Positions 15,980 through 55,539 are shown, counted from the stretch's first letter. The stretch: DNA of 64,000 nucleotides from Chloroflexota bacterium (GCA_016875735.1 VGOW01000007.1:5844-69843), one strand, 5' to 3'. Notes: generated by a model from the letters alone, not told the origin. A program made the numbers and translations.

Positions 15980-17329
15980 CTATCCAGCCTGCTGTTCATA
16001 GGTCTTTTGAATTAGTTTCGCCTTCATCTCGTATCTCGGCAGTGTCCCGGGCGGAAGAATCTCCACATTAGCGGAAAAGATCAGCTTGTCACGCAATAGG
16101 CCTTCGACATCGCGCTTCAACTCCGGCAGGTTTGAGGCTTCCGACCCATGCTCTACTTGAATCTTCAACGGCGGGTCAACCCGCGGACCAGGCGCATCAA
16201 GAATAATCTGTATTTCGCCAGTGGTGCGTGGGCGGAGAGACATGACCACGTCTTTGATCGCTGAGGGGAAGACATTGACGCCGAGCAAAATAAGCATGTC
16301 GTCGGTACGACCTACGCAACGAAGGCGCACACCTGTCCGGCCACAGGGGCAGGTTTCTGTCCAAGCAACCACTTGATCGCGCGTGCGAAAGCGCACCAAA
16401 GGCACGCATTGACGGTCAATGTGGGTGAAAACCAGTTCGCCACGCACTTCGGGATGGCTCATCGGAAGCACTACACCAGTGTCCGGGTCAATAATCTCAA
16501 GAATCACAAGATCGGGCGCAACGAAGTGCATCCCTGCCCGCTCGTCACACTCGCCTGCGTAGACCGGAATAACATCGGCGTTGCCAATTCCTTCTGTTAC
16601 GAATACACCCCAATCTTCTTCTATGCGCTTGCGGACTTCGGGTACACCCCCACCGGGTTCCGCGCCGACCTGAATTCGTTGAAGCCCCAATTTGCGCGGA
16701 TCCATATGGAATCTGCTCCGCACGTATTCGGCGAGGTACGTTGCGTACGAAGGTGTGCAAGTCAATTGATTTGCGCCAATGTTCTGAATGGATGTCACTA
16801 GCCGATCTGATGCGCCGGTGCCAATTGGAATGAATGTTGCTCCGATCTGCTCAGCAGCATCCTGCAAAGGAATGCCCCCAACGAAGAAACTTAACCCGAA
16901 GCCCATCGCCAAGATGGTATCTGGCCGTACCCCCTCCGCCCAGTATACCCGCGCCACGGACTCCATCCAACCATCGCGGTCATGGCGCGTGATGCCGACA
17001 TAACTCGGACGGCCTGTCGTCCCCGAGGAGGAGTGAATTCGAATCACATCTTCCATCTGCGCGGCAGCGTGCAAACCGAGCGGAGGTCGTTCGATCTGGC
17101 TGTCACGCAATTCCTCTTTCGTCGTGAAGGGGAGCCTTGCCAGATCATCGATGGTGCGAATGTCGGCCGGGTTGATTCCGTTCGCGTCGAAACGTCGGCG
17201 ATAAAACGTCGAGTACTCATAGTTGTAGGCCATCTGCCGCCGCAGTCTGTCCTCCTGCATGAGGCGGACACGATCCAGTGGCATAGTCTCAATATCTTGG
17301 TTAAAGTAGCGTGGATAGGATGTGGTCAT
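15980..17329 (-). CDS. PaaK / coenzyme F390 synthetase-family adenylate-forming CoA ligase
   Basis: 449 aa. SSGTTGRPS AMP-binding motif and overall COG1541-type layout. Last gene of the carboxylase operon. Confidence 0.85.
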   Translation of the reverse strand: MTTSYPRYFNQDIETMPLDRVRLMQEDRLRRQMAYNYEYSTFYRRRFDANGINPADIRTIDDLARLPFTTKEELRDSQIERPPLGLHAAAQMEDVIRIHSSSGTTGRPSYVGITRHDRDGWMESVARVYWAEGVRPDTILAMGFGLSFFVGGIPLQDAAEQIGATFIPIGTGASDRLVTSIQNIGANQLTCTPSYATYLAEYVRSRFHMDPRKLGLQRIQVGAEPGGGVPEVRKRIEEDWGVFVTEGIGNADVIPVYAGECDERAGMHFVAPDLVILEIIDPDTGVVLPMSHPEVRGELVFTHIDRQCVPLVRFRTRDQVVAWTETCPCGRTGVRLRCVGRTDDMLILLGVNVFPSAIKDVVMSLRPRTTGEIQIILDAPGPRVDPPLKIQVEHGSEASNLPELKRDVEGLLRDKLIFSANVEILPPGTLPRYEMKAKLIQKTYEQQAG

Positions 17330-18258
17330 ATGATTTGTCGGAGACTCCCGATCACGGCGCGCAAATCTTTTGGCTCCATCTCGTAGGGTAATTCTCCAGC
17401 CGTCGTGACCAGCACGCAGTTAGCAGTCCGCAAACGGCGGATTTCATCTAGCAAAGGCGGAGCAATAGGCATAGCGGGCAAGGCAATGCCGTAAGGGACC
17501 TCCGGCAAGCCGACTCCTTGCGAGGATTTCAGCAGGCTCTCGGTTGGCAAACATAGCACAGCCTCTGTTAACCCCACCCCGTTGTTTCCATTGGGCGCTT
17601 CTATGGCCAATACGACTGGCAGGGCTTCATAGAATCGCGCGACTCGGCAAAGCGTTTCTACCTGAGCAGACCATTGAAACTGCGTGGGGCTATCTTGGCT
17701 TGGAAGCCTCGGTTCAATTAACAGAATTAAATCGGCTCCAGCCTCACAGGCCAATCGCGCCGCCTGAAGAGTAGCGCCGCCAGCCAGCGCAAGATAGTCT
17801 GATAGTGTCGGGCCGTCCAGCCCCGATGTCGGAACGCCGATGTATTCGACCGTCGTCAACAAGCCCGGCAATGCTACGGCCAGTGCTACCCGCTCGCGCA
17901 GGACAACACGCAAGCGACGCAAGACTTCGAGCATGATCGGAATGCGCCCCCGATTCTCGATGTCGGTCGGGGCAATCGTAACGGGCGGCGCCAGCACCTG
18001 CGGCAGATCGGCCTCCCACCCAAGCCTTGCGCCTAAAGCCTCAGCGATGAGCGTTTGGTCGGCATAGCAACACAGCGCATCACACTGCAACGGCCCCTGC
18101 AGCTGGCGCAACCCATTTGCGATCTTGGTCGGATTGGAAAAGAACTGCTGGGGGGACATTCCTCCAACTTTGGCCGCCATAGCAAAGAACAGCGGCATGA
18201 AGATAGGGCGTGGGGGCACCGTCCCCGTTCGAGCTAGTTGCTTGACGAGTGCCTGCAC
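17326..18258 (-). CDS. URO-D/MtaA-like (uroporphyrinogen decarboxylase family) protein; function unknown
   Basis: 310 aa. The pattern ...QQFFSNPTKIANGLRQLQGPLQCDALCCYADQTLIAEALGARLGWEADLPQV resembles the URO-D/MtaA N-terminal region. This is a recollection-level match that needs an HMM search. Confidence 0.5.
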   Translation of the reverse strand: MQALVKQLARTGTVPPRPIFMPLFFAMAAKVGGMSPQQFFSNPTKIANGLRQLQGPLQCDALCCYADQTLIAEALGARLGWEADLPQVLAPPVTIAPTDIENRGRIPIMLEVLRRLRVVLRERVALAVALPGLLTTVEYIGVPTSGLDGPTLSDYLALAGGATLQAARLACEAGADLILLIEPRLPSQDSPTQFQWSAQVETLCRVARFYEALPVVLAIEAPNGNNGVGLTEAVLCLPTESLLKSSQGVGLPEVPYGIALPAMPIAPPLLDEIRRLRTANCVLVTTAGELPYEMEPKDLRAVIGSLRQII

Positions 18259-18325
18259 TCGTATTCCTCTCCGTCCGCTATCACTTCCTTGGCCGAATTA
18301 ACTCCGCAACCAGGGAGGAGGAGAA

Positions 18326-20389
18326 TCACGGTCTGAACACCGGCATGGTCGGCTCACCGGTAGGCCACTTGCCGAACCAAGTAAGGATTTCGTCCGGTGG
18401 CTTCAATTGCTCCCACTCAGCCATGAACTCGGCGTAGGGCTTGCCGCGTTTTAGCCTGCTTTGACACTCGGCGTCGCGCCGGGCTTTAGTTGCTTCAACA
18501 TCCACACCTGCTCCGTCAGGCATGAGAACCACCTTGTAGATATTATCAACCACGCCCGCCGAGATTTTGTGCGTTGTGAAGTCCTGCCACACGCTCTGGG
18601 GGTCGCGCTCCAACGGATCGCCATACCCAGCACCGCCCGTGGCGAAACTCACGGTAATTACGTCACCATCGGCGACCGGGCGTGTAGTGCGCCCGAAGAA
18701 CTCCGAAACCCATTGGCCACCAATAGAATGATTCTGGAGCATATCTTGCAGGTCGAGCGTGATATCTGGCGCGCCGGCTTGCATCTTCTGCAGGATGTCC
18801 GCACTCAAAATGCTAATGCCCGGGACAGTGCAGGGCGCATAGCCGCCGAAAAGTGGTTGCGGAGTCTGTATCTTACTGTTGTCCGAAATTGTCGCAAAGA
18901 AAAGCGCTGGAACTTTGTGGTAACCGACCCAAAGTTGCGTCGTGCCCACACCGCCCCGGTACAAACCGTGCCCACAACTATCCTGCCAGTGTTGCGAGAA
19001 CGGGATGAATAGCGGGAACTCGTTCTCCATCGATTCGACGTTGGGCGCTCGGCCATACACGCACCACGGGAAGCCGAAGGCGTCGACGCCGTCCTGAAGC
19101 GCTCGCCCACCCTGCCCTTCGGTGTTGATCGAGTAGGCAAGCATGTCGGCGAAGGGTAATCCCCATTGCGATAACCCAGCAATGATCAATGCGTTCCCAG
19201 CATTGCCATGCGAAGCAGTCACCTGTTTCCACATCCCCGTGGGGAAGATGGCTTTGGCAAACACGTTGTGCATCGCACTCATCGCCCCAGTGGCAATCAT
19301 TACTGCATTGCTGGTAGCCGCACGGGCATCGGGATTCAGAACAATGCCGGGTGGGAACTTGAAGTCGATCGAAGCAAAGGTGGCACTACTAATAGGCAAA
19401 TCGTGGAAGATATATTCGTAAATGTAGTTCGACATGTGCCCCACAGCGGATTGCGCGTGGGTGTTGTAGGAGGAGTTGTTCTCCGGCGAGGTGCCCGTGA
19501 AGTCAAAGGTCAGCCGGTCGCCCTGCTTGATCATGGCCAAGGCGCACGACCGCACCAGGCCCTGCCGAGTGCCGAGCGCGTCGGCGAAGTGCACACTGCG
19601 ATACACCCCGTCGGGCCAGGCGGCGATACGCTGGCGGGCGCTCTGCTCCGCCGTTTCCAACATCTTGCGCAACAAACCGACGACGAAGTCCACACCGTGG
19701 CGCTCACACATTTCCACCACGCGTTGCCGGGCGCGCTCACAGCCCACGACGCGAGCCTTCAGATCGATCACAAACATCTGCGGCGCGCGGATGCCGTAAG
19801 CCGCCGTCATCTCCAAGATATCGTCACGTAGCACACCGTTCTCACCGATCTTGATAGGCGGCAGATTCATTCCCTCCTCAAATCTCGATGTTGCGCCTAC
19901 GGGCATCCCACCCGGCTCTATGGCGCCGGTTTCGGTGGTATGCACTGCCGCGCCCGCCCACGCCACTAACTTGCCGCCGTAGAAGATCGGCACGATGGCC
20001 AATTGATCGGGGTTATGGATGCCGCCGTACAGCGCGTCGTTGGTGTACCACACATCGCCATCTCTAATACCGGGATTCTCAGAGTAGTAGTGCAAGATGT
20101 ACTTGATAAGAATCGGCTGGATGATGGCGTGCAGGTAGGTACCGCAGGAGGCATTTGCCAAGTCACCAGCAGCAGTGAAGAGCGCCACCATCGAGTCGCC
20201 AGCAATGCCGATCGAACTGCGGGACGAGCGCATGAAGACCTCCATGGCTTCATCCAGCAGGTCGTTGGTTCGTTGCAGGCCGATCTCATACTGTCCGGCG
20301 CTGACGAGCTTGACACATGCTTGCTCGTTGCTAGTGGCCGGTTCTGGCTTGAGCCATTTCAGTTTCTGTTCAAGGGTTGGAATGGGCAT
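18326..20389 (-). CDS. Hydantoinase B/oxoprolinase-family subunit, acetone/acetophenone carboxylase catalytic-subunit-like
   Basis: 687 aa. HyuB-type GGAGYGDP motif near the C-terminal third and a long AcxB-like C-terminal extension. Confidence 0.85.
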   Translation of the reverse strand: MPIPTLEQKLKWLKPEPATSNEQACVKLVSAGQYEIGLQRTNDLLDEAMEVFMRSSRSSIGIAGDSMVALFTAAGDLANASCGTYLHAIIQPILIKYILHYYSENPGIRDGDVWYTNDALYGGIHNPDQLAIVPIFYGGKLVAWAGAAVHTTETGAIEPGGMPVGATSRFEEGMNLPPIKIGENGVLRDDILEMTAAYGIRAPQMFVIDLKARVVGCERARQRVVEMCERHGVDFVVGLLRKMLETAEQSARQRIAAWPDGVYRSVHFADALGTRQGLVRSCALAMIKQGDRLTFDFTGTSPENNSSYNTHAQSAVGHMSNYIYEYIFHDLPISSATFASIDFKFPPGIVLNPDARAATSNAVMIATGAMSAMHNVFAKAIFPTGMWKQVTASHGNAGNALIIAGLSQWGLPFADMLAYSINTEGQGGRALQDGVDAFGFPWCVYGRAPNVESMENEFPLFIPFSQHWQDSCGHGLYRGGVGTTQLWVGYHKVPALFFATISDNSKIQTPQPLFGGYAPCTVPGISILSADILQKMQAGAPDITLDLQDMLQNHSIGGQWVSEFFGRTTRPVADGDVITVSFATGGAGYGDPLERDPQSVWQDFTTHKISAGVVDNIYKVVLMPDGAGVDVEATKARRDAECQSRLKRGKPYAEFMAEWEQLKPPDEILTWFGKWPTGEPTMPVFRP

Positions 20390-20406
20390 GCTGTCACCTC
20401 GAATTC

Positions 20407-22524
20407 CTACTCCAGTATTCCCAGTTCATGCTGATTGATCGAGTAAATCAGACCGGGCGGGACAACGATGGTGGTGAATTGTGTTTCGACCAGTGCCGGC
20501 CCTTCTACAACGTTACCAGGTCGCAAGGCCATACCGTCATATACGTTCGTTTCGCGCAGATCGCCGTGCTCAGGCCAGAAAGCCAACCGCGAACCGCGCT
20601 GGGCATAGGCAGGGCTGGGACCTTCGAGTGCCCGGGTAGGCAGGTTAAGCTTAACCGTTGGCAGGACGGCTTTGAGCACGAAGTTGTCCACGTAAACACC
20701 ACCAGCGGGATTGACGACCAGTCGGCTGAAAGTCTCGGCGAATTCGCGCTCGAACTCGTCATAAATCGCACGGGCGTAGGCCTCGCCACGAATGAATAGT
20801 TCGGGCGACGATGTACGTTTGACTTGCACCTGACCGCCGTACAACATATCCAGTTCCAGTTGGAATATAGCCTGGTCCGGATCGAACCCTTCGCCTGCCA
20901 GATCGAGTTTGGCTACATCGATCAATGAAGTCACCACCGCGTTGAATTGATCCTGATCGACCACGAATTGCTGAGTGAATGGCTGGATGAACATCATGCG
21001 TTGCGATTTCTCATAGACATGGATGTTGTCCAGGATGGACGAGCCAAGCGCACAGAACACCGGCGAAAGCGGGAAGATGACGGCGCGCTTAATATCTTGC
21101 TTGTAGCCCGCTACGTGCGTGGGGCCTCCACCGCCAAAGGCAAAGAGCACAAAGTCATCTGGATTGTAGCCGCGCAGGTGTACTTCCTTGCGAATGGCCG
21201 AGGCCATATTGCCTTCCACGACCTGCCGGATGAGCCATGCGGCTTCATGCACGCTCACACCGAGCGGCCGAGCGATGTGTTGCTGGACCACCTGCTCGGC
21301 TTTTGCCTTGTCCAACTTCATCTTGCCGCCATAAAAGTAATCTGGATCTATGTAGCCCAACACTACATTCGCATCCGTAACCGTAGGTGCAGTGCCGCCA
21401 AGGTTGTAGCAGGCCGGGCCGGGCAAGGAACCTGCGCTCTGTGGACCCACCTCTAGCCGATTGCCTAGTGCCCGGTTGACTTTGGCGATCGAGCCGCCGC
21501 CTGCGCCGATGGAGAGCGTCTGCAACATGGTGATGCCCACCATCCATCGGTCGATGATCGGTCGGAACTCGTAGTTGCGCACTGCGTCCTGCACAATCAA
21601 GCCAATGTCGAACGAAGTGCCACCCACATCACTCGTGACAACATTGTGATAGCCAAGTTGTTTGGCGATGTGTTGCGCGCCGATCAGGCCCGCCACCGGG
21701 CCGCCATTGTAAGTTCGGCTGGCTGTGGTCTTGAATATCTCCGCAATGCCCCCCGAGTTGTGGATCATTTGGAATGAGCCACGATAACCCTTGTCGCGCA
21801 ACCTATCCCACATTGCCGATAGCTCGATCTGCATGGCGCGTTGAAGATAAGCATCAAGAACCGAGGTCATAGTGCGCTCATATTCGCCAAGCTTACCCAG
21901 CACCTCACTGGAAAGCACCACAGGCGCACTGCCAAGGTGATAATCTTTATATTCCTCGCGGATGATCTCCTTGACGCGTTGCTCGTGGGCAGGATTCACG
22001 AAAGACCACAAAAGCGAGACAACGAAGCCGCGCGCGCCGTTGTTGACCAGCCGATGGACTTTTGCTCGCACGTCAGCCTCGTCCATTGGGCGCACCACCT
22101 TGCCAGTAGAGTCCACACGTTCGCGCACCCCCACAATTAACTCCGGCGGGATGATGGGCATTGGCTTGTTCTGAACAGCCAGGTTCCGGCGTTCGGCAAC
22201 GCGCGTGCCGTCTACCCACTGTGCGCCGCGCCCGATCAGAATGGCGTCCTCGTGGCCCTCCGTGGTGATAAGCGCCAGGCGCGGACCGCTCCGCTCGATC
22301 AACCGGTTCATCGCGATCGTCGTCGAGTAGCGAATAATCTGGGTGTCGCCGAGCAACTGCTCTGCTGTCATGCCCGAGTTCTTGGCAGCCTCTTCGATGA
22401 CATTGAGGAAGCACACTGACAGATCGTAGGGTGTAGTCGGGGATTTTGCAGGCGTCACCGAGCCGTTGCGAGTAAGCACCAGATCGGTGAATGTTCCACC
22501 AACGTCAATATCAATGCTGTTCAT
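20407..22524 (-). CDS. Hydantoinase A/oxoprolinase-family ATP-binding subunit (paralogue 2)
   Basis: MNSIDIDVGGTFTDLVL (ASKHA phosphate-1 motif) and DVGGTSFDIGLI (second ASKHA half). 705 aa. Confidence 0.9.
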   Translation of the reverse strand: MNSIDIDVGGTFTDLVLTRNGSVTPAKSPTTPYDLSVCFLNVIEEAAKNSGMTAEQLLGDTQIIRYSTTIAMNRLIERSGPRLALITTEGHEDAILIGRGAQWVDGTRVAERRNLAVQNKPMPIIPPELIVGVRERVDSTGKVVRPMDEADVRAKVHRLVNNGARGFVVSLLWSFVNPAHEQRVKEIIREEYKDYHLGSAPVVLSSEVLGKLGEYERTMTSVLDAYLQRAMQIELSAMWDRLRDKGYRGSFQMIHNSGGIAEIFKTTASRTYNGGPVAGLIGAQHIAKQLGYHNVVTSDVGGTSFDIGLIVQDAVRNYEFRPIIDRWMVGITMLQTLSIGAGGGSIAKVNRALGNRLEVGPQSAGSLPGPACYNLGGTAPTVTDANVVLGYIDPDYFYGGKMKLDKAKAEQVVQQHIARPLGVSVHEAAWLIRQVVEGNMASAIRKEVHLRGYNPDDFVLFAFGGGGPTHVAGYKQDIKRAVIFPLSPVFCALGSSILDNIHVYEKSQRMMFIQPFTQQFVVDQDQFNAVVTSLIDVAKLDLAGEGFDPDQAIFQLELDMLYGGQVQVKRTSSPELFIRGEAYARAIYDEFEREFAETFSRLVVNPAGGVYVDNFVLKAVLPTVKLNLPTRALEGPSPAYAQRGSRLAFWPEHGDLRETNVYDGMALRPGNVVEGPALVETQFTTIVVPPGLIYSINQHELGILE

Positions 22525-22892
22525 GTCGCCACCTCAAGATGTCCTTCTTTGATGATCAATTCCTGCCGCGCCAACCGCGCTTTGAGGCCATCGAGGTCAA
22601 TTTCGATATCGTGAGTCAATGGATGGCCGGGGGGCAGATACTCGGTTTCGAGTTGTGTGCCGCATTGAGGGCAGTAAAACTCTATGATCCGAATCCAAGC
22701 CGGGTCGGGCGCAAAGTTGTATTCGGCCTCAATCAGTGGTGAGTGTATCTCGCGTGGATCACGATTGTGGATCAAGCAACCCTTCTTATAGTTCTCGCGG
22801 GCGCTCACCAGAGCATGTCCACAACGATTGCAGCGCCACATTTCGTCGGCCAGGTCCAGGTCGATGCTTTCTGTCATACGGATGCGGCTCAT
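22521..22892 (-). CDS. Acetone-carboxylase gamma-subunit-like Cys4 zinc protein
   Basis: MWRCNRCGH...FYCPQCGTQLETEY gives two CxxC pairs in a 123-aa protein. RBS TAGGAGAAA lies 7 nt upstream of the ATG. The gene has an ATGA overlap with the next gene. Confidence 0.8.
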   Translation of the reverse strand: MSRIRMTESIDLDLADEMWRCNRCGHALVSARENYKKGCLIHNRDPREIHSPLIEAEYNFAPDPAWIRIIEFYCPQCGTQLETEYLPPGHPLTHDIEIDLDGLKARLARQELIIKEGHLEVAT

Positions 22893-22902
22893 CTCATTTC
22901 TC

Positions 22903-24852
22903 CTATCTTGTCAATTTACCATTGCCAAACTCATCCACCTGCAATTGCCAGGCTGGGCCGATCAGGTAGGTTGTTTGGGCGCTCTCGGCAATGGCAGGAC
23001 CGGCCACGTGGTTGCCAGGCTTCAGGCTCTCCCATATGTAAACCGGTGTGTCGATGGCTTGCCCGTTCCAGCGCACTTGGCGGCTGCCAGTTTTGGCCGA
23101 CAACGCATCCGCACTGCCCAATTGGCTGGGCACTGGCTCTTGGCCTCCCACTGCATAACTCGCCCGCAGGCGCGCCAGTTCGAGAGTGCCTTCGCCAATC
23201 GCTTTCTTCAGCCCAGCGCGATCCAGATGGCTGATCGGCAAGGACGCGGTCGTGATCTTGCCTGACGTCTCGCGCACATCCAATTCCAACATGAGCTGTG
23301 CCTTGGCCAAATCGAGTTCCTCCCCGGCCAGATCGCGGTTAGCCTCTGCGCGCATCGCAGAGATCGCCTGCTCAAGTCTCGTGAGCCCTGTCTCATCAGC
23401 CTTCGCCATTAGCGCGTGTTCATAAACATGCAAGATGTCTGCAAGCGATGAGCCAAGCACACTGAACACCGGCCCAAGGTTAAACACGTAGGCGCATTTC
23501 AGTCCAAGTTGCTCCGCCAGGCTGGTGGCGAAGATAGGCCCATTGCCGCCAAAGGCGAACAAGATGTAGCCGGAGGCTGACTCCCCAGTAGCATTGAGCC
23601 GCTTCTGAATGCCCTCGGCTGCCATTCCCACTGCGCACTGGGCAATGCGTGCCGCTGCTTCTTCTGTGCTACAACCAAGCGGTTTGGCGATGTGTGTTTC
23701 GATGGCTTCGCGGGCACGATCCTTATTGAGCATACGTGCACCACCGAGGAAATTGAGGGGGTTCAGGTAACCCAACAGAAGCGCCGCGTCGGTCAATGTG
23801 GCTTCTGCACCGCCCACGTCATAGCACGCCGGGCCAGGATATGCTCCCATGCTCTCGGGGCCAAGCGTGACCTTGCCATCTTTTGCCCGCGCCACACTTC
23901 CACCGCCAAGCGCAAGTGAGGCCACATCGGGCATCGGTATTTGGAGCGAGATGCCGAAGATGTCCGGTCGGCGGTTAAGGGCGGGCACGCCGTTTTGAAT
24001 GAAACTGATTTTCGTCGTGGTGCCGCCCACGTCGAGGGCAATGACATGCGAGTGATTCTGGCGGCGGGCAAAGTGTGCGCTAGCATACAGCCCCATAGTC
24101 GGGCCTGACTCGATCGTATCTACCGCGCGCGTCTTCGAGACGCGGGCAACGCCGCCATTTTGATGGCCGATAAGCAACCAGCGCTTCCAACCGTGCTGGT
24201 CGCGCAAAATGTCTTCAGCTTTGAATAGCGTGCTGGCAAGCGGCCCATGAACGTAGGCGTTAATGAGGGTGACGTGCGTGCGCGTCATGTCGTCGGGGTG
24301 CTTGCAAATGTCGCTACCGAGCAGAACGGGCACCGAGCCGAGGTAATGGTCTGGATACTGGCGGTTGACAATAGTCTGCAATTGCCGCTCGGCCCCTGGG
24401 TTGGCAAATGCCCCACTTAGGCTAATGCACACACGGCGCACGCCACGCTCCAGGAGACTCTTGACTAGACCCAGCACCACGTGCGGATCTGCAGTTTGAG
24501 GCAGACCCAATACACCGCCCTCGCCAGCCAATTCTAGTGCCGGGCTGGGGCCGTCGCCGGAATACAGGTCATGTTCGTGGCCTTGCGAGACAAGCAGTCC
24601 AAGCCGGGGCCCACGACGTTCGGCCAATACATTGGTGGTGACGGTGGTAGACCAGCGAATGAGCTGCGTTTGCCCAAGGAGCGCGGCCAGATCTGGCAAG
24701 CCTAGTTGGTCGGATCCGGCTTGCAGGCAGTCGAGGAAGCAAACAGTCAGGTCGTGGGGGGTGGTATCTACCTTCACTGGTGTCATATGGCGGCCCTCGG
24801 TAAACAAGCCGTCAGTGAAGGTTCCACCAACATCAATGTCAATTGTGTACAC
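22903..24852 (-). CDS. Hydantoinase A/oxoprolinase-family subunit (paralogue 1)
   Basis: VYTIDIDVGGTFTDGLF and LDVGGTTTKISFI motifs. Start reassigned to GTG 24852, preceded by AAAGGAGG (RBS) 7 nt upstream. The ORF-track Met at 24912 adds 20 unsupported codons. Confidence 0.85.
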   Translation of the reverse strand: MYTIDIDVGGTFTDGLFTEGRHMTPVKVDTTPHDLTVCFLDCLQAGSDQLGLPDLAALLGQTQLIRWSTTVTTNVLAERRGPRLGLLVSQGHEHDLYSGDGPSPALELAGEGGVLGLPQTADPHVVLGLVKSLLERGVRRVCISLSGAFANPGAERQLQTIVNRQYPDHYLGSVPVLLGSDICKHPDDMTRTHVTLINAYVHGPLASTLFKAEDILRDQHGWKRWLLIGHQNGGVARVSKTRAVDTIESGPTMGLYASAHFARRQNHSHVIALDVGGTTTKISFIQNGVPALNRRPDIFGISLQIPMPDVASLALGGGSVARAKDGKVTLGPESMGAYPGPACYDVGGAEATLTDAALLLGYLNPLNFLGGARMLNKDRAREAIETHIAKPLGCSTEEAAARIAQCAVGMAAEGIQKRLNATGESASGYILFAFGGNGPIFATSLAEQLGLKCAYVFNLGPVFSVLGSSLADILHVYEHALMAKADETGLTRLEQAISAMRAEANRDLAGEELDLAKAQLMLELDVRETSGKITTASLPISHLDRAGLKKAIGEGTLELARLRASYAVGGQEPVPSQLGSADALSAKTGSRQVRWNGQAIDTPVYIWESLKPGNHVAGPAIAESAQTTYLIGPAWQLQVDEFGNGKLTR

Positions 24853-25044
24853 GATTGATGACCTCCTTTGAGGGAACTTGGAGTCCGGTACGGAGAGGCA
24901 AATTCTGCGCACCTATCCGAAGGATAAGTTGGAGTTCTCTCCTAAATCATACAAGGAGGACAAAGTTGGGCGTGAGGGACGAAAGGAGAATTTCCGAGCA
25001 GAGTCGACTCGTCCGAGTGCGACTTTAGTCGTACGACTGGCAGC

Positions 25045-25695
25045 TCACAACGGCAGAAGACCAGCCTGCCTTCCATATCGGATCGCTTGTACTCGATTCT
25101 GTACGCCGAGTTTGACAAGGATGCTGCTCATATGAGCTTTAACTGTCTTCTCTGAAATGACGAGAGCCAAACCAATATCGCGATTGGACTTGCCCTCAGC
25201 GGCCAAGCGGAGAACTTCGACCTCTCGGTCGCTCAGTGGTGTTGCGGGCGGCGGGCGAATTGGCGCGGCAACGCTACGCAACGAGTTGACAACTATTTTT
25301 GCTGCCTGCGCATCCAGAGGCACTTCGCCACGGCAAACTTTCTGAATAGCCGCAACGAGATCAGGCGGCTCAACGTCTTTAAGAACATATCCCTCCGCCC
25401 CAGCCTCGAGAGCCTCAGTGATGTACTTTGCTTCTATAAAACTGGTGAGCGCCAGCACTTTGATGTCAGGCCAACGATCCTTGATTTGGCGGATCGCTTC
25501 AATGCCGTTCAATTGAGGCATAACCAGATCCATCAGGACAACATCGGGCCGGCACGCTTCAGCCTGACGCACAGCCTCAGCGCCGTTGTTGGCCTCACCG
25601 ACCACTGCAATATCGCCATAACTGGCCAGGCAGGATTTTAGGCCGATGCGCACCATGGCGTGATCGTCAACGATAAGCGTTCGGATAGGCATCAT
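25045..25695 (-). CDS. NarL/LuxR-family response regulator
   Basis: Receiver (LIVDDH...VVLMDLVMP...ALTS...K) plus C-terminal LuxR HTH (LSDREVEVLRLAAEGKSNRDIGLALVISEKTVKAHMSSIL). Confidence 0.9.
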   Translation of the reverse strand: MMPIRTLIVDDHAMVRIGLKSCLASYGDIAVVGEANNGAEAVRQAEACRPDVVLMDLVMPQLNGIEAIRQIKDRWPDIKVLALTSFIEAKYITEALEAGAEGYVLKDVEPPDLVAAIQKVCRGEVPLDAQAAKIVVNSLRSVAAPIRPPPATPLSDREVEVLRLAAEGKSNRDIGLALVISEKTVKAHMSSILVKLGVQNRVQAIRYGRQAGLLPL

Positions 25696-26911
25696 CCTCT
25701 ACCTCCCCGCGCAAGGGCAACCACGCTTCAATCTGTGTGCCTGAGTTCGGCACCGAGTTCACAAGTAGGCTCCCGCCCAACTGCTCAGCACGTTCCCGCA
25801 TGGAGATCAGCCCCAGTCCCGCCCGGCTCACCGATGGCTGTGGACTGGAGGGAGTTCCTGCGACATCAAATCCGTAGCCATCGTCAGCCACAGTCAATGT
25901 CACGTCCACGTCAGTGAGCCTCAATTCTACCGCTATGCGCCGGGCTTGCGCATGTTTGACAGCATTGTGCATCGCTTCTTGCGCGATACGAAACAGCGCA
26001 TCTTCCACTTGAGGTGGGAGGTGTCTCACGCCAGATTGCCGAACTTCCACAGAGAGGCCATGGCGAACCTGTGTGGCTTCAGCCAATTTGCGCATGGCGG
26101 TGATCAGCCCTTCGCCCTCAAGCGGGGCGGGGCGTAATTGGTAGATTAGCGCGCGCATCTCAGAAAGCGCATCACGGGCAGCTTGATATAGAAGATCGAT
26201 AGTAACGCCCGGATCCTCTTGGCCGGAGCGCAGATAGTTACGTGCGGCGTCAGCCAGAAGCATGATCGTAAAAAGGGATTGGGTGACCGAGTCATGCAAT
26301 TCACGGGCAATAGCATGCCGCTCATTGAGATGGGCCAATCGCTCAGCCTCGCCATAGAGCCGCGCATTCTCGATCGCGATGGCGGCGTGTTTGGCGAAAA
26401 GTGACAGCAGTTCCGCATCACGTTCATCAAACACACGCCGAGGAGAACTAGTGCCGATAGAAAAAACGCCGATTAGCCGGCCTTGCCACCAAATGGGCAC
26501 ACTCACCGCCGACCGGATCCGGCGCATTGCTTCGTCATCGAGGGGGATATGCACCTGGCTGCCGTAGTCACTAAGGATGACAGGGTGCCTCGCGGCATAT
26601 ACCTGGCCGCTTAGGCCGACACCCTCCGCAAAGTCAATGTGGAGTAACGCCTCAGGTAAATTGTAGAGAGCTTTGTGGCGGATAGCATGCCGCTCCTCAT
26701 CCACCAGGCCAATGGCGCCCTGCTCGGCATCCAGCAATTCCACCGCGTTGACAACCATCTTCCTCAGGAGTGCATCCAAGTCAAGTTCACGACTCAGGGA
26801 CTCCGTCAGCGAAAGCAGAGTGATGAGTTGCTGCAGGTTGCGCTGCAAATCAGCGATCTGCTGATCGCGCTGCGCCAATTGTGAAGCAAGGCCGTCGAGT
26901 GTAGCAACCAT
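25667..26911 (-). CDS. GAF-domain sensor histidine kinase (HisKA_3/NarX type)
   Basis: Coiled-coil N-terminus, a GAF region, the H-box ERHAIARELHDSVTQSL and an HATPase_c domain (VADDGYGF...GLGLISMRERA). Confidence 0.85.
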   Translation of the reverse strand: MVATLDGLASQLAQRDQQIADLQRNLQQLITLLSLTESLSRELDLDALLRKMVVNAVELLDAEQGAIGLVDEERHAIRHKALYNLPEALLHIDFAEGVGLSGQVYAARHPVILSDYGSQVHIPLDDEAMRRIRSAVSVPIWWQGRLIGVFSIGTSSPRRVFDERDAELLSLFAKHAAIAIENARLYGEAERLAHLNERHAIARELHDSVTQSLFTIMLLADAARNYLRSGQEDPGVTIDLLYQAARDALSEMRALIYQLRPAPLEGEGLITAMRKLAEATQVRHGLSVEVRQSGVRHLPPQVEDALFRIAQEAMHNAVKHAQARRIAVELRLTDVDVTLTVADDGYGFDVAGTPSSPQPSVSRAGLGLISMRERAEQLGGSLLVNSVPNSGTQIEAWLPLRGEVEDDAYPNAYR

Positions 26912-27211: not shown

Positions 27212-27436
27212 TCATTCTTCTTTCGCCTCCGGCTTCGCCACGTCGGGCAATTTCGTTCCCGGCGGAATCCACCGCTTCAAATCGGCCAACTGAATTTTGA
27301 TCGCGCGCCGGCACTTGGGGCAGTTCTCCACGTGATGAATTGCTTTGGCCGCCTGCGCCTCGGCTACCGCCTGCAGAACATTCTCGCGTTTCATGGTGTA
27401 ACGATGCCCGCACCATTGGCAAACGACTTGCATCAT
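27212..27436 (-). CDS. Small Cys4 zinc-ribbon protein, unknown function
   Basis: MMQVVCQWCGH...VENCPKCRRAIK. RBS-like AAAGGAA lies upstream. The longer ORF-track version (to 27565) would overlap the EamA gene. Confidence 0.45.
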   Translation of the reverse strand: MMQVVCQWCGHRYTMKRENVLQAVAEAQAAKAIHHVENCPKCRRAIKIQLADLKRWIPPGTKLPDVAKPEAKEE

Positions 27437-27470: not shown

Positions 27471-28400
27471 TCACCGTTTGGAGGCCAGCACGATGCCGCC
27501 GAGGATGAGCAGGCCGCCGAACAATTTGAGAGGCGCCGGTGTTTCGCCGAAGATGAAAAAGGCAAGAATGGTCGAGCCGATTGGCTCGCCGAGAATGGTG
27601 ACCGACACGTACGTAGCCGAGAGGTAACGCAATGCCCAATTGAACGCTGAGTGACCGATCAGTTGCGGCACCAGGGCGAGCAGCGCCATCCAAAAATAGG
27701 CGGCGGGCGAGTATCCGAAGAACGAGCGCCCGCTGAACAGCGCGGCAATAATGAGCGTGATGGCCGCGACTCCGTAGCAGAGAAAAATGTATGGGATGAG
27801 AGAAAGTTTGGCGCGCAATCGCCGCCCAATGAGCAGATATCCGGCCACCGTGATCGCGCCCGCCAGCGCGAGCAGATCGCCGATTATCGCGCGCCCCCGC
27901 GCGAACTCGGCGAGGGAGGGGCAGACGATTCCCTCGCGAGTGACAGCGCACGCGTCGGAGAGGCCCACCATCGCCCCGCCAGTCAGCGCTACGATCAACC
28001 CGGCGATCAACGGCTTGCCGAATTTCTCGCGCCACACGATCAGCGAGAACAAACCGACAAACAGCGGCGAGGTGGAAACGAACACTACCGAACTGGCAAC
28101 GGTAGTGTATTCGAGCGAGGTGATCCACGTACCGAAGTGCAAACCGAGGAAGAGGCCGGAGACGACGGCGACGGCAGAATCGCGGCGAGTGAGGCGGGTG
28201 AGCTCGGCGCGATGGCGAGTGAGGGCGATGGGCGCGAGGACGATAGAGGCAAAGGTGAGGCGATACGCGGCGATGATCAGCGAGGGCGCTTTCACATCTT
28301 GCGCGAGTTTGATGATGATGGAGGCCGCCGACACAGCCAGCACGCCGACGGCAATGCCGATGTATGGGTGAACGGCGGGACGGGGAGTGGAGAGGGACAT
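27471..28400 (-). CDS. EamA/DMT-superfamily transporter (10 TM)
   Basis: 309 aa with two EamA-like halves of about 5 TM each and typical G-rich ends of each half (..LGEPIGSTILAFFIFGE...GGLLILGGIVLAS). Confidence 0.85.
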   Translation of the reverse strand: MSLSTPRPAVHPYIGIAVGVLAVSAASIIIKLAQDVKAPSLIIAAYRLTFASIVLAPIALTRHRAELTRLTRRDSAVAVVSGLFLGLHFGTWITSLEYTTVASSVVFVSTSPLFVGLFSLIVWREKFGKPLIAGLIVALTGGAMVGLSDACAVTREGIVCPSLAEFARGRAIIGDLLALAGAITVAGYLLIGRRLRAKLSLIPYIFLCYGVAAITLIIAALFSGRSFFGYSPAAYFWMALLALVPQLIGHSAFNWALRYLSATYVSVTILGEPIGSTILAFFIFGETPAPLKLFGGLLILGGIVLASKR

Positions 28401-43033: not shown

Positions 43034-43503
43034 TAAAGGGTGAAGTGTGGAGAGTGGAAAGAAGGCGATGTCTGTAAATGCTCCCGCAAAGGATCACCGT
43101 GATCTTCGAGTATATCAACTCGCATTTGAGTCGGCGGTTCGCGTTTATGAAACCACCAAATCGTTCCCACCCGAGGAGCGATACAGCCTCACCGATCAGA
43201 TCCGGCGTTCATCCCGTTCCGTCTGCACCAACATCGCCGAAGCGTGGCGCAAGAGACGCTACCCCAACCACTTTGCCAGTAAGCTCAGCGATGCCGACGC
43301 AGAGGCTACCGAAACCATCGTGTGGCTCGACTTTGCCTTTCGCTTCGGCTTCGTCTCAGCCGATCTTCACCGCGAACTCATCGAAAGCTACAACCTTGTT
43401 TGCAGGCAACTCACTGTGATGATGTCCCAACCCCACAAATGGACTCCAAAACCCTGATCCACCCTCTACCCTCCGCCCTCCACTCTTCACTCTCCAGCCT
43501 CCG
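43034..43503. repeat. Long-range imperfect inverted repeat enclosing the four-helix-bundle gene
   Basis: The left purine-rich heptamer run is gtaaagg gtgaagt gtggaga gtggaaa gaagg. The right pyrimidine-rich run is ccaccct ctaccct ccgccct ccactct tcactct ccagcct. GTGAAGTGTGGAG (43040..43052) is 12/13 complementary to CTCCACTCTTCAC (43478..43490). Confidence 0.6.
43068..43457 (+). CDS. Four-helix-bundle protein (23S rRNA intervening-sequence protein family)
   Basis: DLRVYQLAFESAVRVYETTKSFPPEERYSLTDQIRRSSRSVCTNIAEAWRKRRYPNHFASKLSDADAEATETIVWLDFA is the characteristic pattern of this family (TIGR02436/PF05635, from memory). Confidence 0.85.
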   Translation: MSVNAPAKDHRDLRVYQLAFESAVRVYETTKSFPPEERYSLTDQIRRSSRSVCTNIAEAWRKRRYPNHFASKLSDADAEATETIVWLDFAFRFGFVSADLHRELIESYNLVCRQLTVMMSQPHKWTPKP

Positions 43504-45421
43504 CCGCAACCGCATGGGGCTCATCGGCGCAGGGATGCTCGTCGCCTCCTTTGTCGTCGCCGCCCTCGCCTCCCTCATCGCCCCCTATGATCCAAAGAGC
43601 CCCCTGCCGGTCACCATCGACACCATCTATGCCCCGCCCGGCCCCCAACACCTCCTCGGCACCGATGACGCCGGGCAGGATGTGCTGACGAACTTCATCT
43701 ACGGCTCGCGCATCTCGCTCACCGTCGGCTTCTTTGCCTCATTCATTTCCATCGTCATCGGCGGAGTCATCGGCCTCGCCGCCGGTTACTTCGGCGGGCG
43801 CATCGATAACCTGCTCATGCGCTTCACCGACATCATCCTCGTCATTCCCGACCTCCCTCTCACCATCGTCCTCGTCGCCCTCACCAAACCCAGCCTGCTC
43901 AACATCATCATCGTCATCGGCATCGTCGGCTGGACAGGCAGTGCGCGCCTCGTGCGGTCGCAAACCATCGCCGTCAAAGAGCGCAAGTTCGTCGTGCGCG
44001 CCCGGGCCATCGGCGCCGGCCACCTGCGCATCATCGCCCGCCACATCTTCCCCCTCGTCCTGCCGCTCATCGTCACCAACACCGTGCTCGTCATCTCCCT
44101 CGCCATCCTCAACGAAAGCGCCCTCTCCTTTCTCGGCCTCGCCGACCCCACCACCCTCTCGTGGGGCCAAATGCTCAACTACGCTTTCACGCGTGGCGCA
44201 ATGAGCACTGGCGCATGGTGGGCGCTCGTGCCGCCCGGCTTCGGAATCGTATGGGTGGTGCTGGCCTGCACCCTGCTCGGCTACGGCCTCGAACAAATCC
44301 TCAACCCGCGAGTCGAGTCGCACCACCTCTCCGTCGGCGCGCAGATGATTTCGCGGCTGACCGGGCGTCTGTCCCCGCTCGACTCGCTCCCGGCGGCCAG
44401 CGACCGCTCACACCGCGCCGCGCCTCCCGATCTCAACCGCGCCCCCGTCGTTCTCGACGTGGCCGGCCTCTCGGTGGACTTCGTCTCCGAGTCCGCCCCG
44501 CCCGCTCACGCCGTCTCGAACGTTTCCTTCAGCCTCCGCCAGGGCGAACTGCTCGGTCTCGTCGGAGAATCGGGTTGCGGCAAAACCACGCTCACCCTCG
44601 CCCTCATGCGCCTCCTGCCCGCCGCAGGCCGCATCGTCGGCGGCGAAGTGAGCATGGCCGACCACGATCTTCTTTCGTTGAGCGAAAAAGAAATGGAAGA
44701 GGTGCGCTGGAAAGATATTGCCATGATCTTTCAGGGCGCAATGAACGCCCTCAATCCGGTGCGCACTATTGGCGATCAGATTGCCGAAGCCGTCCTTCGC
44801 CGTCAGCCGAACTCCCCTCAAGAATCCGTTGACCGGCGCGTGTCCGAACTGCTCGAGCTCGTTGGCATCGCCGCCGCCCGCCGCGCCCAGTATCCGCATC
44901 AATACTCCGGCGGCATGAGGCAACGCGCGATGATCGCCATGGCGCTCGCCTGCAATCCCAAGGTCGTCATTGCCGACGAACCCACCACTGCTCTCGACGT
45001 GATGATCCAAGCGCAGATACTCGATCTGCTCGCCCGCCTCCGCCGCCAACTCGGCCTCTCGGTCATCTTCATCACCCACGATCTCGGCGTGGTGGCCGAA
45101 GTGTGCGACACGGTGCTGGTGATGTATGGCGGCGTCACCGCCGAATACGCCAGCGTGGACACGATCTTCAACAACGCCCAGCATCCATATACGCGAGAAC
45201 TGCTCAAAGCCTTCCCCGATCTTTCACATCCGGGCGGCCGCCTCACCTCCATTCCCGGCTATCCCCCGCGCCTCAATGCTCTGCCGCCCGGCTGCCGGTT
45301 CGCCCCGCGCTGCCCCGCCGCCTTCGACCGTTGCCACACCGAGCCGCCAGCCATTCACTCGTTGAGCGGCTTTCACACGGCAAGTTGCCATCTGGTCGAA
45401 AATTTGGAGATTGGAGATTAA
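43439..45421 (+). CDS. Fused ABC permease (OppC/DppC-like) and ATPase (OppD/DppD-like)
   Basis: The N-terminal half is a permease (LRRNRMGLIGAGMLV..., with EAA-loop region FVVRARAIGAGHLRIIARHIFP). A ~45-aa linker follows. The C-terminal half is an ATPase (GESGCGKTT, YPHQYSGGMRQR, VVIADEPTTALD). Start at MDSKTL (ATG 43439), overlapping the 4HB gene end by 19 nt. Confidence 0.85.
   Translation: MDSKTLIHPLPSALHSSLSSLRRNRMGLIGAGMLVASFVVAALASLIAPYDPKSPLPVTIDTIYAPPGPQHLLGTDDAGQDVLTNFIYGSRISLTVGFFASFISIVIGGVIGLAAGYFGGRIDNLLMRFTDIILVIPDLPLTIVLVALTKPSLLNIIIVIGIVGWTGSARLVRSQTIAVKERKFVVRARAIGAGHLRIIARHIFPLVLPLIVTNTVLVISLAILNESALSFLGLADPTTLSWGQMLNYAFTRGAMSTGAWWALVPPGFGIVWVVLACTLLGYGLEQILNPRVESHHLSVGAQMISRLTGRLSPLDSLPAASDRSHRAAPPDLNRAPVVLDVAGLSVDFVSESAPPAHAVSNVSFSLRQGELLGLVGESGCGKTTLTLALMRLLPAAGRIVGGEVSMADHDLLSLSEKEMEEVRWKDIAMIFQGAMNALNPVRTIGDQIAEAVLRRQPNSPQESVDRRVSELLELVGIAAARRAQYPHQYSGGMRQRAMIAMALACNPKVVIADEPTTALDVMIQAQILDLLARLRRQLGLSVIFITHDLGVVAEVCDTVLVMYGGVTAEYASVDTIFNNAQHPYTRELLKAFPDLSHPGGRLTSIPGYPPRLNALPPGCRFAPRCPAAFDRCHTEPPAIHSLSGFHTASCHLVENLEIGD
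44308..44387. repeat. 10-bp perfect inverted repeat in the permease-ATPase linker
   Basis: GCGAGTCGAG (44308..44317) and CTCGACTCGC (44378..44387) are separated by 60 nt. The segment is in-frame with no stop codon. Confidence 0.6.
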
Positions 45422-54802: not shown

Positions 54803-55456
54803 TCAGAGCGAATCTTTGAGATTGTGTTTGGTGGCGTACGAAGCTGCTTCGGCGCGATTGGCGAGGCCAAGTTTGCTGAGGACGTTGCTCACGTAATTGC
54901 GCACCGTGCCTTCGCCCAAGTGCAGGTCTTGAGCAATTTCGCGATTCGTTTTGCCTTCGGCCACCAAGGCCAGCACGCGCCGCTCTTGCTCGGTGAGCTG
55001 AGAGAACGCGCTTGATTCTTGTTCGCGGGCCGCGCGGCGCACTTCGGCAAACACCCGCTCGGTGAGAGCCGGGTCGAGCAGAGAATTGCCCTGCCCCACC
55101 ATTTCAATCGCGCGGATCAAATCCTGCCCGCCTGCCTGTTTCAACACATACCCCGCCGCCCCGGCGCGGATGGCCGCAAACAACATACCATCCTCGGCAT
55201 AGCTGGTGAGCATAATCACTTTGGCGTCGGGGAGTTGTTTGGTGATCTCTCGGCAAGCGTCAATCCCGCTCGAACCTCCAAGCCGTATATCCAAAACAAT
55301 GACATCGGGCTTGAAGTGCAGGGCTTTCTCTAAAGCGTCGCTGGCTGTCGAGGCCTCGGCCACCACTTCCATATCCGGGTGCCGATCAATCAATGCCTTC
55401 AATCCCAAACGAACCACTTCATGGTCGTCAACAATCATGATTCTCTGTCGTCGCAT
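54803..55456 (-). CDS. NarL/LuxR-family response regulator
   Basis: Receiver (IMIVDDHEVVRLGL...VIVLDIRLG...MLTS) plus LuxR HTH (LTEQERRVLALVAEGKTNREIAQDLHLGEGTVRNYVSNVL). Confidence 0.9.
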   Translation of the reverse strand: MRRQRIMIVDDHEVVRLGLKALIDRHPDMEVVAEASTASDALEKALHFKPDVIVLDIRLGGSSGIDACREITKQLPDAKVIMLTSYAEDGMLFAAIRAGAAGYVLKQAGGQDLIRAIEMVGQGNSLLDPALTERVFAEVRRAAREQESSAFSQLTEQERRVLALVAEGKTNREIAQDLHLGEGTVRNYVSNVLSKLGLANRAEAASYATKHNLKDSL

Positions 55457-55539
55457 GGGTGTATTTTACCCGTTGCCTACCTTGCAAGACAAGTGGATCA
55501 AATAGCCGTCGGCGCGTGACTGGGATACAATTCCGGGCG

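Follow-up and report, generated by a model that had tools for sequence, protein, structure and literature searches.

Introduction

Acetophenone carboxylase (Apc) belongs to a small group of carboxylases that use no biotin and add CO2 to a methyl ketone that has not been activated; the sole Apc studied is betaproteobacterial. In Aromatoleum EbN1, its subunits are encoded by apcABCDE, which is followed by the ligase gene bal (PDB 5L9W, 9fou; PMC5214803, PMC4729919). As for its relatives, the hydrolases of the family consist of two subunits and acetone carboxylase (Acx) of three, with longer gamma and beta subunits in the latter (PMC5214803). Moreover, apcABCD(E)-like clusters outside the Proteobacteria, including that of Rubrobacter with a 26%-identical ApcE, were already described in 2017 (PMC5214803). 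Here, we analyzed a stretch of 64,000 nucleotides (nt) from a Chloroflexota bacterium (GCA_016875735.1, VGOW01000007.1:5844-69843), hereafter the window, and found in it a minus-strand operon of six genes that we consider likely to encode an Apc-type carboxylase for aryl methyl ketones, dependent on ATP but not on biotin, together with the next enzyme of the pathway.

Organization of the operon

Six packed genes run along the minus strand from 24852 to 15980, and their open reading frame (ORF) coordinates are exactly those given by a first-pass annotation made from the sequence alone, whose gaps, overlaps, and motifs (YTIDIDVGGTFTD, CNRCGH...CPQCG, MNSIDIDVGGTFTD, GGAGYGDP, and SSGTTGRPS) were all recovered from the ORFs and a motif scan. 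In operon order, these genes code for an ApcA-like alpha' subunit as the proposed bicarbonate kinase (22903-24852, 649 aa), an ApcB-like gamma subunit with a Cys4 Zn-ribbon (22521-22892, 123 aa), an ApcC-like alpha subunit as the proposed ketone kinase (20407-22524, 705 aa), an ApcD-like beta subunit of the HyuB type (18326-20389, 687 aa), an ApcE-like epsilon subunit with a URO-D/MtaA-like barrel (17326-18258, 310 aa), and a PaaK-family acyl-CoA ligase, presumed to be an aroylacetate-CoA ligase (15980-17329, 449 aa). By their coordinates, neighboring genes are separated by 10 nt at the first junction, 17 nt at the third, and 67 nt at the fourth, and they overlap by 4 nt at the second and fifth. 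Synteny with the Aromatoleum apc operon, for which the first-pass annotation had named a fifth subunit of ~30 kDa and a ligase, is borne out by the EbN1 locus (found via a search with the ApcA sequence), as its order of apcA, B, C, D, E, and bal matches that of the window.

While the longest ORF of the apcA-like gene spans 22903-24912, we take the GTG at 24852 as its true start, because the ribosome-binding site AAAGGAGG precedes it (as had been claimed for this first HyuA-type paralogue), the resulting protein lines up with residue 1 of EbN1 ApcA, and a 649-aa gene is also called on three independent metagenome contigs with an identical beta-subunit protein. Four other assemblies carry identical copies of the locus. 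With Pfam E-values for its genes being as low as 1e-89, chance similarity is ruled out.

Carboxylase core subunits

Each subunit was compared with Pfam, the NCBIfam Apc subunit equivalog models (NF042960, NF042974-NF042977), and PDB chains (5L9W for the core and 9fou for epsilon), as well as by pairwise alignment to the EbN1 proteins. The acetophenone-carboxylase-type core proposed earlier is upheld by these comparisons, for which PDB 5L9W and 9fou and the five NCBIfam Apc models gave the best matches, the latter in the operon order A, B, C, D, and E (702/1250, 204/250, 1106/1500, 1046/1500, and 68/450 bits against the respective equivalog cut-offs). Since all of these scores fall under the cut-offs, Apc function is not automatically transferable to the locus. 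Hidden Markov model searches, as the first-pass annotation had suggested, matched Hydantoinase_A twice, Acetone_carb_G, and Hydantoinase_B within the operon proteins, along with URO-D and AMP-binding.

The alpha' subunit aligns over its full length with PDB 5l9w_b (E=1e-184) and is 47% identical to EbN1 ApcA. It has the DVGGT (twice) and GAYPGP motifs, keeps the polar residues E248, D274, and K281 in the alignment, and is without the R/KERxDxxG fingerprint, as expected of an alpha' subunit. This fingerprint (R/KERiDsxG) is found as RERVDSTG in alpha, which shares 63% identity with EbN1 ApcC and scores 1015 bits against PDB 5l9w_B versus 329 bits against acetone carboxylase. In both of these paralogues, the PHOSPHATE 1, PHOSPHATE 2, and ADENOSINE motifs for ATP (ASKHA type) are intact; the earlier remark that one HyuA ATP site is degenerate in Apc has no counterpart in the structure paper (PMC5214803). 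The gamma subunit gave 130 bits with Pfam Acetone_carb_G and is 64% identical to EbN1 ApcB with four of four cysteines aligned, and its length of 123 aa is Apc-like (129 in Apc, 168 in Acx). Likewise, beta (687 aa) is close in length to that of Apc (684) rather than Acx (776), is 58% identical to EbN1 ApcD over 686 aa, and scores 956 bits against PDB 5l9w_A versus 189 against acetone carboxylase, with the equivalents of D65, H123, D126, and H148 conserved in the alignment.

For telling Apc apart from Acx and the hydantoinases, gene order, tree branch, subunit lengths, and signature motifs have been put forward (PMC5214803). Here, the gene order, the lengths, the gamma Cys4 site, the ATP motifs, and the alpha-only fingerprint all agree with Apc, the motif check being made on positions other than the glycine-rich polyproline-II segments of beta. 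Homology thus places the locus with Apc, as do the set and order of its subunit genes and its catalytic and structural motifs, which are intact.

Epsilon subunit

The fifth protein matches Pfam URO-D weakly (29 bits), yet over the gathering score. It aligns with NCBIfam ApcE over its full length (E=1e-18), at 68 bits where the cut-off is 450, and its best sequence match in the PDB is 9fou, termed 'acetophenone carboxylase epsilon subunit' (E=2e-11). Its identity to EbN1 ApcE is 27% over 218 aa. An AlphaFold (AF2) model built from 34 homologues had a predicted local distance difference test score of 88.5 and a predicted template modeling (pTM) score of 0.90, and the top fold match of this model in the PDB was again 9fou (E = 1.6e-17, TM 0.79-0.83), followed by MtaA and then by uroporphyrinogen decarboxylases. 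Judging from sequence and model, the fifth protein is an ApcE homologue, with 'URO-D/MtaA-like' and 'ApcE homologue' naming one and the same thing. Whether the apc fifth subunit belongs to a URO-D-like family had been left as a question by the first-pass annotation, and this can now be answered in the affirmative, with ApcE being of the URO-D/MtaA fold family. The subunit is highly divergent, at 19-33% identity between lineages, as was remarked in the 2017 structure paper (PMC5214803), and it has many homologues, with 233 cluster representatives at E ≤ 1e-30.

CoA ligase

By Pfam, the ligase consists of AMP-binding and AMP-binding_C_2. Its scores with the PaaK models TIGR02155 and NF041878 (279/646 and 302/700 bits) lie under the equivalog cut-offs, and its identity is 35-36% with EbN1 Bal and 33% with E. 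coli PaaK (b1398). Bal has the same Pfam architecture, including the PaaK-type AMP-binding_C_2 domain, which settles positively the earlier question of whether Bal is PaaK-like. In the neighbor-joining (NJ) tree, the window ligase, Bal, and E. coli PaaK are joined only via long deep branches, and the alignments establish a common family for the first two, short of orthology. Those ligases located beside Apc-like clusters form a tight clade, with 59-72% identity across Chloroflexota, Actinomycetota, and Bacillota; this clade, too, stands at 35% with respect to Bal and at 33% with respect to E. coli PaaK.

Two ligases that are 60-65% identical to that of the window lie away from a full Apc-like cluster. 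One, in a Pseudomonadota metagenome-assembled genome (MAG), comes after aldehyde dehydrogenase and copper amine oxidase genes, and the other, in a Tectomicrobia MAG, after a lone HyuB-type gene (L018 5474-10420; L016 7998-11341). Rubrobacter xylanophilus has two flanking PaaK-like ligases (L012 10001-11350 and 18926-20248) that are 45% identical to each other, and of the two, the one upstream corresponds to the window ligase.

Relatives and phylogeny

The genomes closest to the window are Anaerolineae and Ardenticatenaceae MAGs, and an MAG protein labeled 'Chloroflexi bacterium' at NCBI is identical to the epsilon of the window. In Ardenticatenaceae, the gene order is that of the window and the neighbors differ. 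Elsewhere, the arrangement is apcABCDE, ligase, and then thiolase in Thermogemmatispora; GntR, ligase, apcABCDE, and a second ligase in Rubrobacter xylanophilus; and a GAF-PucR regulator, ligase, and apcABCDE in Paradesulfitobacterium. Candidatus (Ca.) Angelobacter has apcABCD, epsilon, and thiolase, with a remoter PaaK-like ligase (31% identical) nearby on the opposite strand. An Archaeoglobi MAG carries apcABC(D) on a truncated contig (L011 6-4571) that holds only the start of apcD and encodes an alpha with M81 and Y281, and the Apc-like family hence reaches the Archaea.

In Georgfuchsia toluolica (L019 1-19473), an ethylbenzene-dehydrogenase-like molybdenum (Mo) enzyme and a PAS kinase/LuxR-type regulator precede apcABCDE, after which come SDR, BKACE (beta-keto acid cleavage enzyme), and CobW genes, and a Bal-type ligase is not there. 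A different, three-subunit Mo enzyme of the xanthine-dehydrogenase family adjoins the Apc-like clusters of Paradesulfitobacterium and Ca. Angelobacter, which are from unrelated phyla (L010 13315-17110; L017 19092-21335; L020 12042-16090). Among the NCBIfam models, 4-hydroxybenzoyl-CoA reductase is the top hit of both its alpha and its beta, below cut-off, with beta matching over its full length; we refer to this enzyme as Hcr-like.

In an NJ tree of alpha and alpha' sequences in which the two root each other, the window sequences group with other Apc-like sequences, and EbN1 and Georgfuchsia split from all others in both the alpha and the alpha' halves. Such grouping on the Apc side, the family match of gamma, and the recurrence of the six-gene unit elsewhere all went the way of the first-pass annotation. 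In the library searched, no characterized non-proteobacterial Apc was found, nor anything relevant on the physiology of Paradesulfitobacterium. The identity matrix of alpha is near star-like (60-69%), and we therefore regard this as an old, broad family with one characterized member.

Proposed reaction route

What the locus does chemically, on which substrate, and under the control of the neighboring GAF kinase/NarL pair are points that we infer. If it works like the Aromatoleum enzyme, alpha would phosphorylate the enol form of the ketone, and alpha' would phosphorylate bicarbonate to carboxyphosphate. Beta and the Zn-ribbon gamma would serve as the scaffold, with a loosely bound epsilon barrel being required for turnover. 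Carboxyphosphate would then release CO2, whose attack on the enol phosphate would yield an aroylacetate, or benzoylacetate in the case of acetophenone, with two ATP consumed. The PaaK-family ligase may trap this unstable beta-keto acid as a CoA thioester, which a thiolase encoded elsewhere would cleave to aroyl-CoA and acetyl-CoA. Immediately after the ligase gene in Thermogemmatispora (L015 11360-12583) and after epsilon in Ca. Angelobacter (L020 10795-12045) comes a thiolase gene, which in these two would complete the route from ketone via beta-keto acid and beta-ketoacyl-CoA to aroyl-CoA and acetyl-CoA.

As for the substrate, five of the seven proposed pocket residues of alpha are identical to those in EbN1 ApcC (N282, P285, I333, Q344, and T345), and both changes (L81M and F281Y) are conservative. 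Among the sampled non-proteobacterial alpha subunits, M81 occurs in eight of eight and Y281 in seven, the exception being Ca. Angelobacter, while L81 and F281 are found in both proteobacterial ones (EbN1 and Georgfuchsia), which are linked to ethylbenzene-type genes. The positions of these residues relative to a bound substrate are undefined, since there is no structure of a substrate complex (PMC5214803). By analogy, acetophenone or an aryl ketone close to it, with a substituted ring, is the probable substrate. Bearing on its exact identity are the sub-cut-off scores and the absence of ethylbenzene, phenylethanol, or benzoyl-CoA genes from the window.

Weighing of alternative readings

Several observations weigh against an Apc-type carboxylase with its own ligase. 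Only one Apc has ever been characterized (PMC5214803), and five of the five subunits here are under the NCBI equivalog cut-offs. In the trees of alpha and alpha', the window sides with the non-proteobacterial sequences, and its alpha has the L81M and F281Y changes seen in neither EbN1 nor Georgfuchsia. Across the whole 64 kb, no genes for ethylbenzene or phenylethanol dehydrogenase, thiolase, or benzoyl-CoA reductase or oxygenase were found. Moreover, the ligase is as far from Bal as it is from E. coli PaaK, and the nearest relative with flanks (L008) is without the two-component pair. That the locus might instead encode an ATP-dependent hydrolase (hydantoinase, oxoprolinase, or caprolactamase) or an acetone carboxylase is nonetheless highly improbable. 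The Pfam Hydantoinase_A and Hydantoinase_B domains are common to all of these, and caprolactamase models do appear as secondary matches, but alpha', gamma, and epsilon are all present at the locus, and for alpha and beta the Apc chains of 5L9W score 956-1015 bits, whereas chains of Acx, oxoprolinase, and hydantoinase reach 118-329. Apc scores exceed those of acetone carboxylase 3- to 5-fold in bits. On account of subunit composition and these score margins, we rejected both the acetone carboxylase and the hydrolase readings. Similarly, we think it improbable that a common phenylacetate-CoA ligase just happens to be encoded beside the carboxylase without acting on its product. PaaK does provide the best named models, and such a role would suit the 60%-identical Pseudomonadota relative beside copper amine oxidase and aldehyde dehydrogenase (a context of the phenylethylamine-to-phenylacetate type) and the Tectomicrobia relative that adjoins just one lone HyuB gene. 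However, the PaaK model scores are less than half of the equivalog cut-off, Bal is in the same family, and the window is without other paa genes. Here, too, the start of the ligase gene runs 4 nt into the epsilon stop, and its clade flanks Apc-like clusters, either before or after, in Chloroflexota, Actinomycetota, and Bacillota.

More of a contender, though on balance still unlikely, is an Apc-type enzyme whose physiological ketone is other than acetophenone, such as 4-hydroxyacetophenone, aminoacetophenone, propiophenone, or an acetyl-heteroarene. The division between M81/Y281 and L81/F281 alpha subunits, the Hcr-like enzyme beside the Paradesulfitobacterium and Ca. Angelobacter clusters, and the subunit scores under the equivalog cut-offs all speak for it, and the Hcr-like neighbors hint that some lineages process hydroxyacetophenones. 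Even so, the pocket changes are conservative, with their place relative to bound substrate not defined, and no Hcr-like gene was found in the 64-kb window. Furthermore, Ca. Angelobacter keeps F281 despite its Hcr-like neighbor, making residue and context uncorrelated, and a clean link between Y281 and a hydroxy-substituted substrate was rejected for this reason. A further reading, which we hold to be doubtful, is that enzymes of the Met81 lineage (mostly with Tyr281 too) would use ATP to carboxylate ring-substituted aryl ketones, for instance 4-hydroxyacetophenone, and not acetophenone. This lineage spans Chloroflexota, Actinomycetota, Bacillota, Acidobacteriota, and Archaeoglobi. Were it a hydroxyaryl ketone carboxylase, the Hcr-like neighbor in two phyla would represent the downstream dehydroxylation step. 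Outside biotin-dependent or phosphorylation-dependent systems, 4-hydroxyacetophenone is so far not known to be carboxylated.

Adjacent two-component genes and upstream region

On the 5' side of the apcA-like gene is an intergenic region of 192 nt (24853-25044, minus strand), which extends from the regulator stop to the apcA start and is the presumed promoter/operator. Ending at this region and co-directional with the operon is a gene pair for a NarL/LuxR-type response regulator (25045-25695, minus strand, 216 aa; Pfam Response_reg and GerE) as the candidate regulator, and a GAF sensor histidine kinase (25667-26911, minus strand, 414 aa; Pfam GAF, HisKA_3, and HATPase_c) as the candidate sensor. 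The two genes overlap by 29 nt, and no membrane-associated domain was detected in the kinase. Over 16.0-27.5 kb, comprising the operon and the two-component genes, the GC fraction is 0.55-0.60 versus 0.62-0.65 in the flanks, which is consistent with one horizontally acquired block. One flank of this block holds housekeeping genes, namely obg and a probable nadD of the cytidylyltransferase family.

Given this adjacency, co-orientation, and shared GC, control of the operon by the adjacent GAF kinase/NarL pair is plausible; the first-pass annotation had suggested such control, with those three features standing in its favor and the absence of the pair from L008 against it. Orthology with the Georgfuchsia kinase/LuxR pair was considered and rejected, as the regulators are 26% identical and the apc-linked kinase of Georgfuchsia uses PAS, whereas the sensor adjacent to the window operon uses GAF. 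Similarly, a resemblance of the kinase GAF to the Paradesulfitobacterium GAF-PucR regulator turned out to be just a generic match. At 54803-57243, the window has a paralogous, divergently arranged pair of a NarL-type regulator and a double-GAF HisKA_3 kinase. The kinases at the two sites are 32% identical, so kinases of this type recur as a family in the genome.

Upstream of apcA, just past the regulator stop, we noticed two perfect 10-bp palindromes, GTCGTACGAC (25028-25037) and GAGTCGACTC (25001-25010). The former occurs once in the window, with 0.05 expected by chance, and was not found upstream of other apc-like clusters. An inverted-repeat tool scan of the 24853-25044 region found none, and a promoter/terminator scan gave nothing above shuffled expectation and no hit in the apcA upstream region, where the sigma-70 consensus was likewise not matched.

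Other genes in the window

Between the kinase gene and an EamA transporter gene (27471-28400) is a 74-aa ORF (27212-27436, minus strand) with two CxxC pairs, possibly a zinc ribbon. It runs in the same direction as its neighbors and is among the genes called on the metagenome contigs; no Pfam entry is recorded for it. Farther away, in a peptide ABC transporter cluster, a 699-aa ORF (43322-45421, plus strand) has an OppC-type permease (OppC_N and BPD_transp_1) fused to an OppD-type ATPase (ABC_tran and oligo_HPY) in one polypeptide.

Comparison with known systems

Carboxylase-plus-ligase genes recur in five bacterial phyla, sometimes with a thiolase added, and the Archaeoglobi contig has at least apcABC(D). 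They can help to annotate the degradation of aromatic ketones in metagenomic data and to supply variants of the enzyme. NCBI subunit models already exist for the family.

Among the systems compared, AcxABC (PDB 5M45, 5SVB) shares with the window the superfamily, ATP-dependent enol-phosphate chemistry, and a gamma Zn-ribbon, but differs in having three subunits, with neither alpha' nor epsilon, and a longer beta and gamma. PaaK (E. coli b1398; PDB 4r1l, 2y4o) resembles the window ligase in family and domain architecture, though the context of the latter is a carboxylase operon and not a paa cluster. A closer likeness is seen in Rubrobacter xylanophilus DSM 9941, with its apcABCDE-like core, URO-D-like epsilon, 62-63% identical ligase, and M81/Y281. 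There, however, the orthologous ligase gene is 5' of apcA and behind a GntR regulator, a second PaaK-like ligase gene comes after epsilon, and the cluster is without a two-component system.

Differing from EbN1, the window has a Chloroflexi bacterium from a metagenome as its host and no ethylbenzene dehydrogenase or Ped genes near the operon. Nevertheless, apcABCDE-bal of EbN1 comprises the same six families in the same order, and the two are alike in subunit lengths, ATP motifs, the Cys4 site, the D/H/D/H site of beta, the alpha fingerprint, and the epsilon fold. Identities are 47-64% for the core and weakest for epsilon (27%) and the ligase. Taken together, the locus is a complete and intact addition, in uncultured Chloroflexi, to the known Apc system, and leaves the understanding of that system unchanged.

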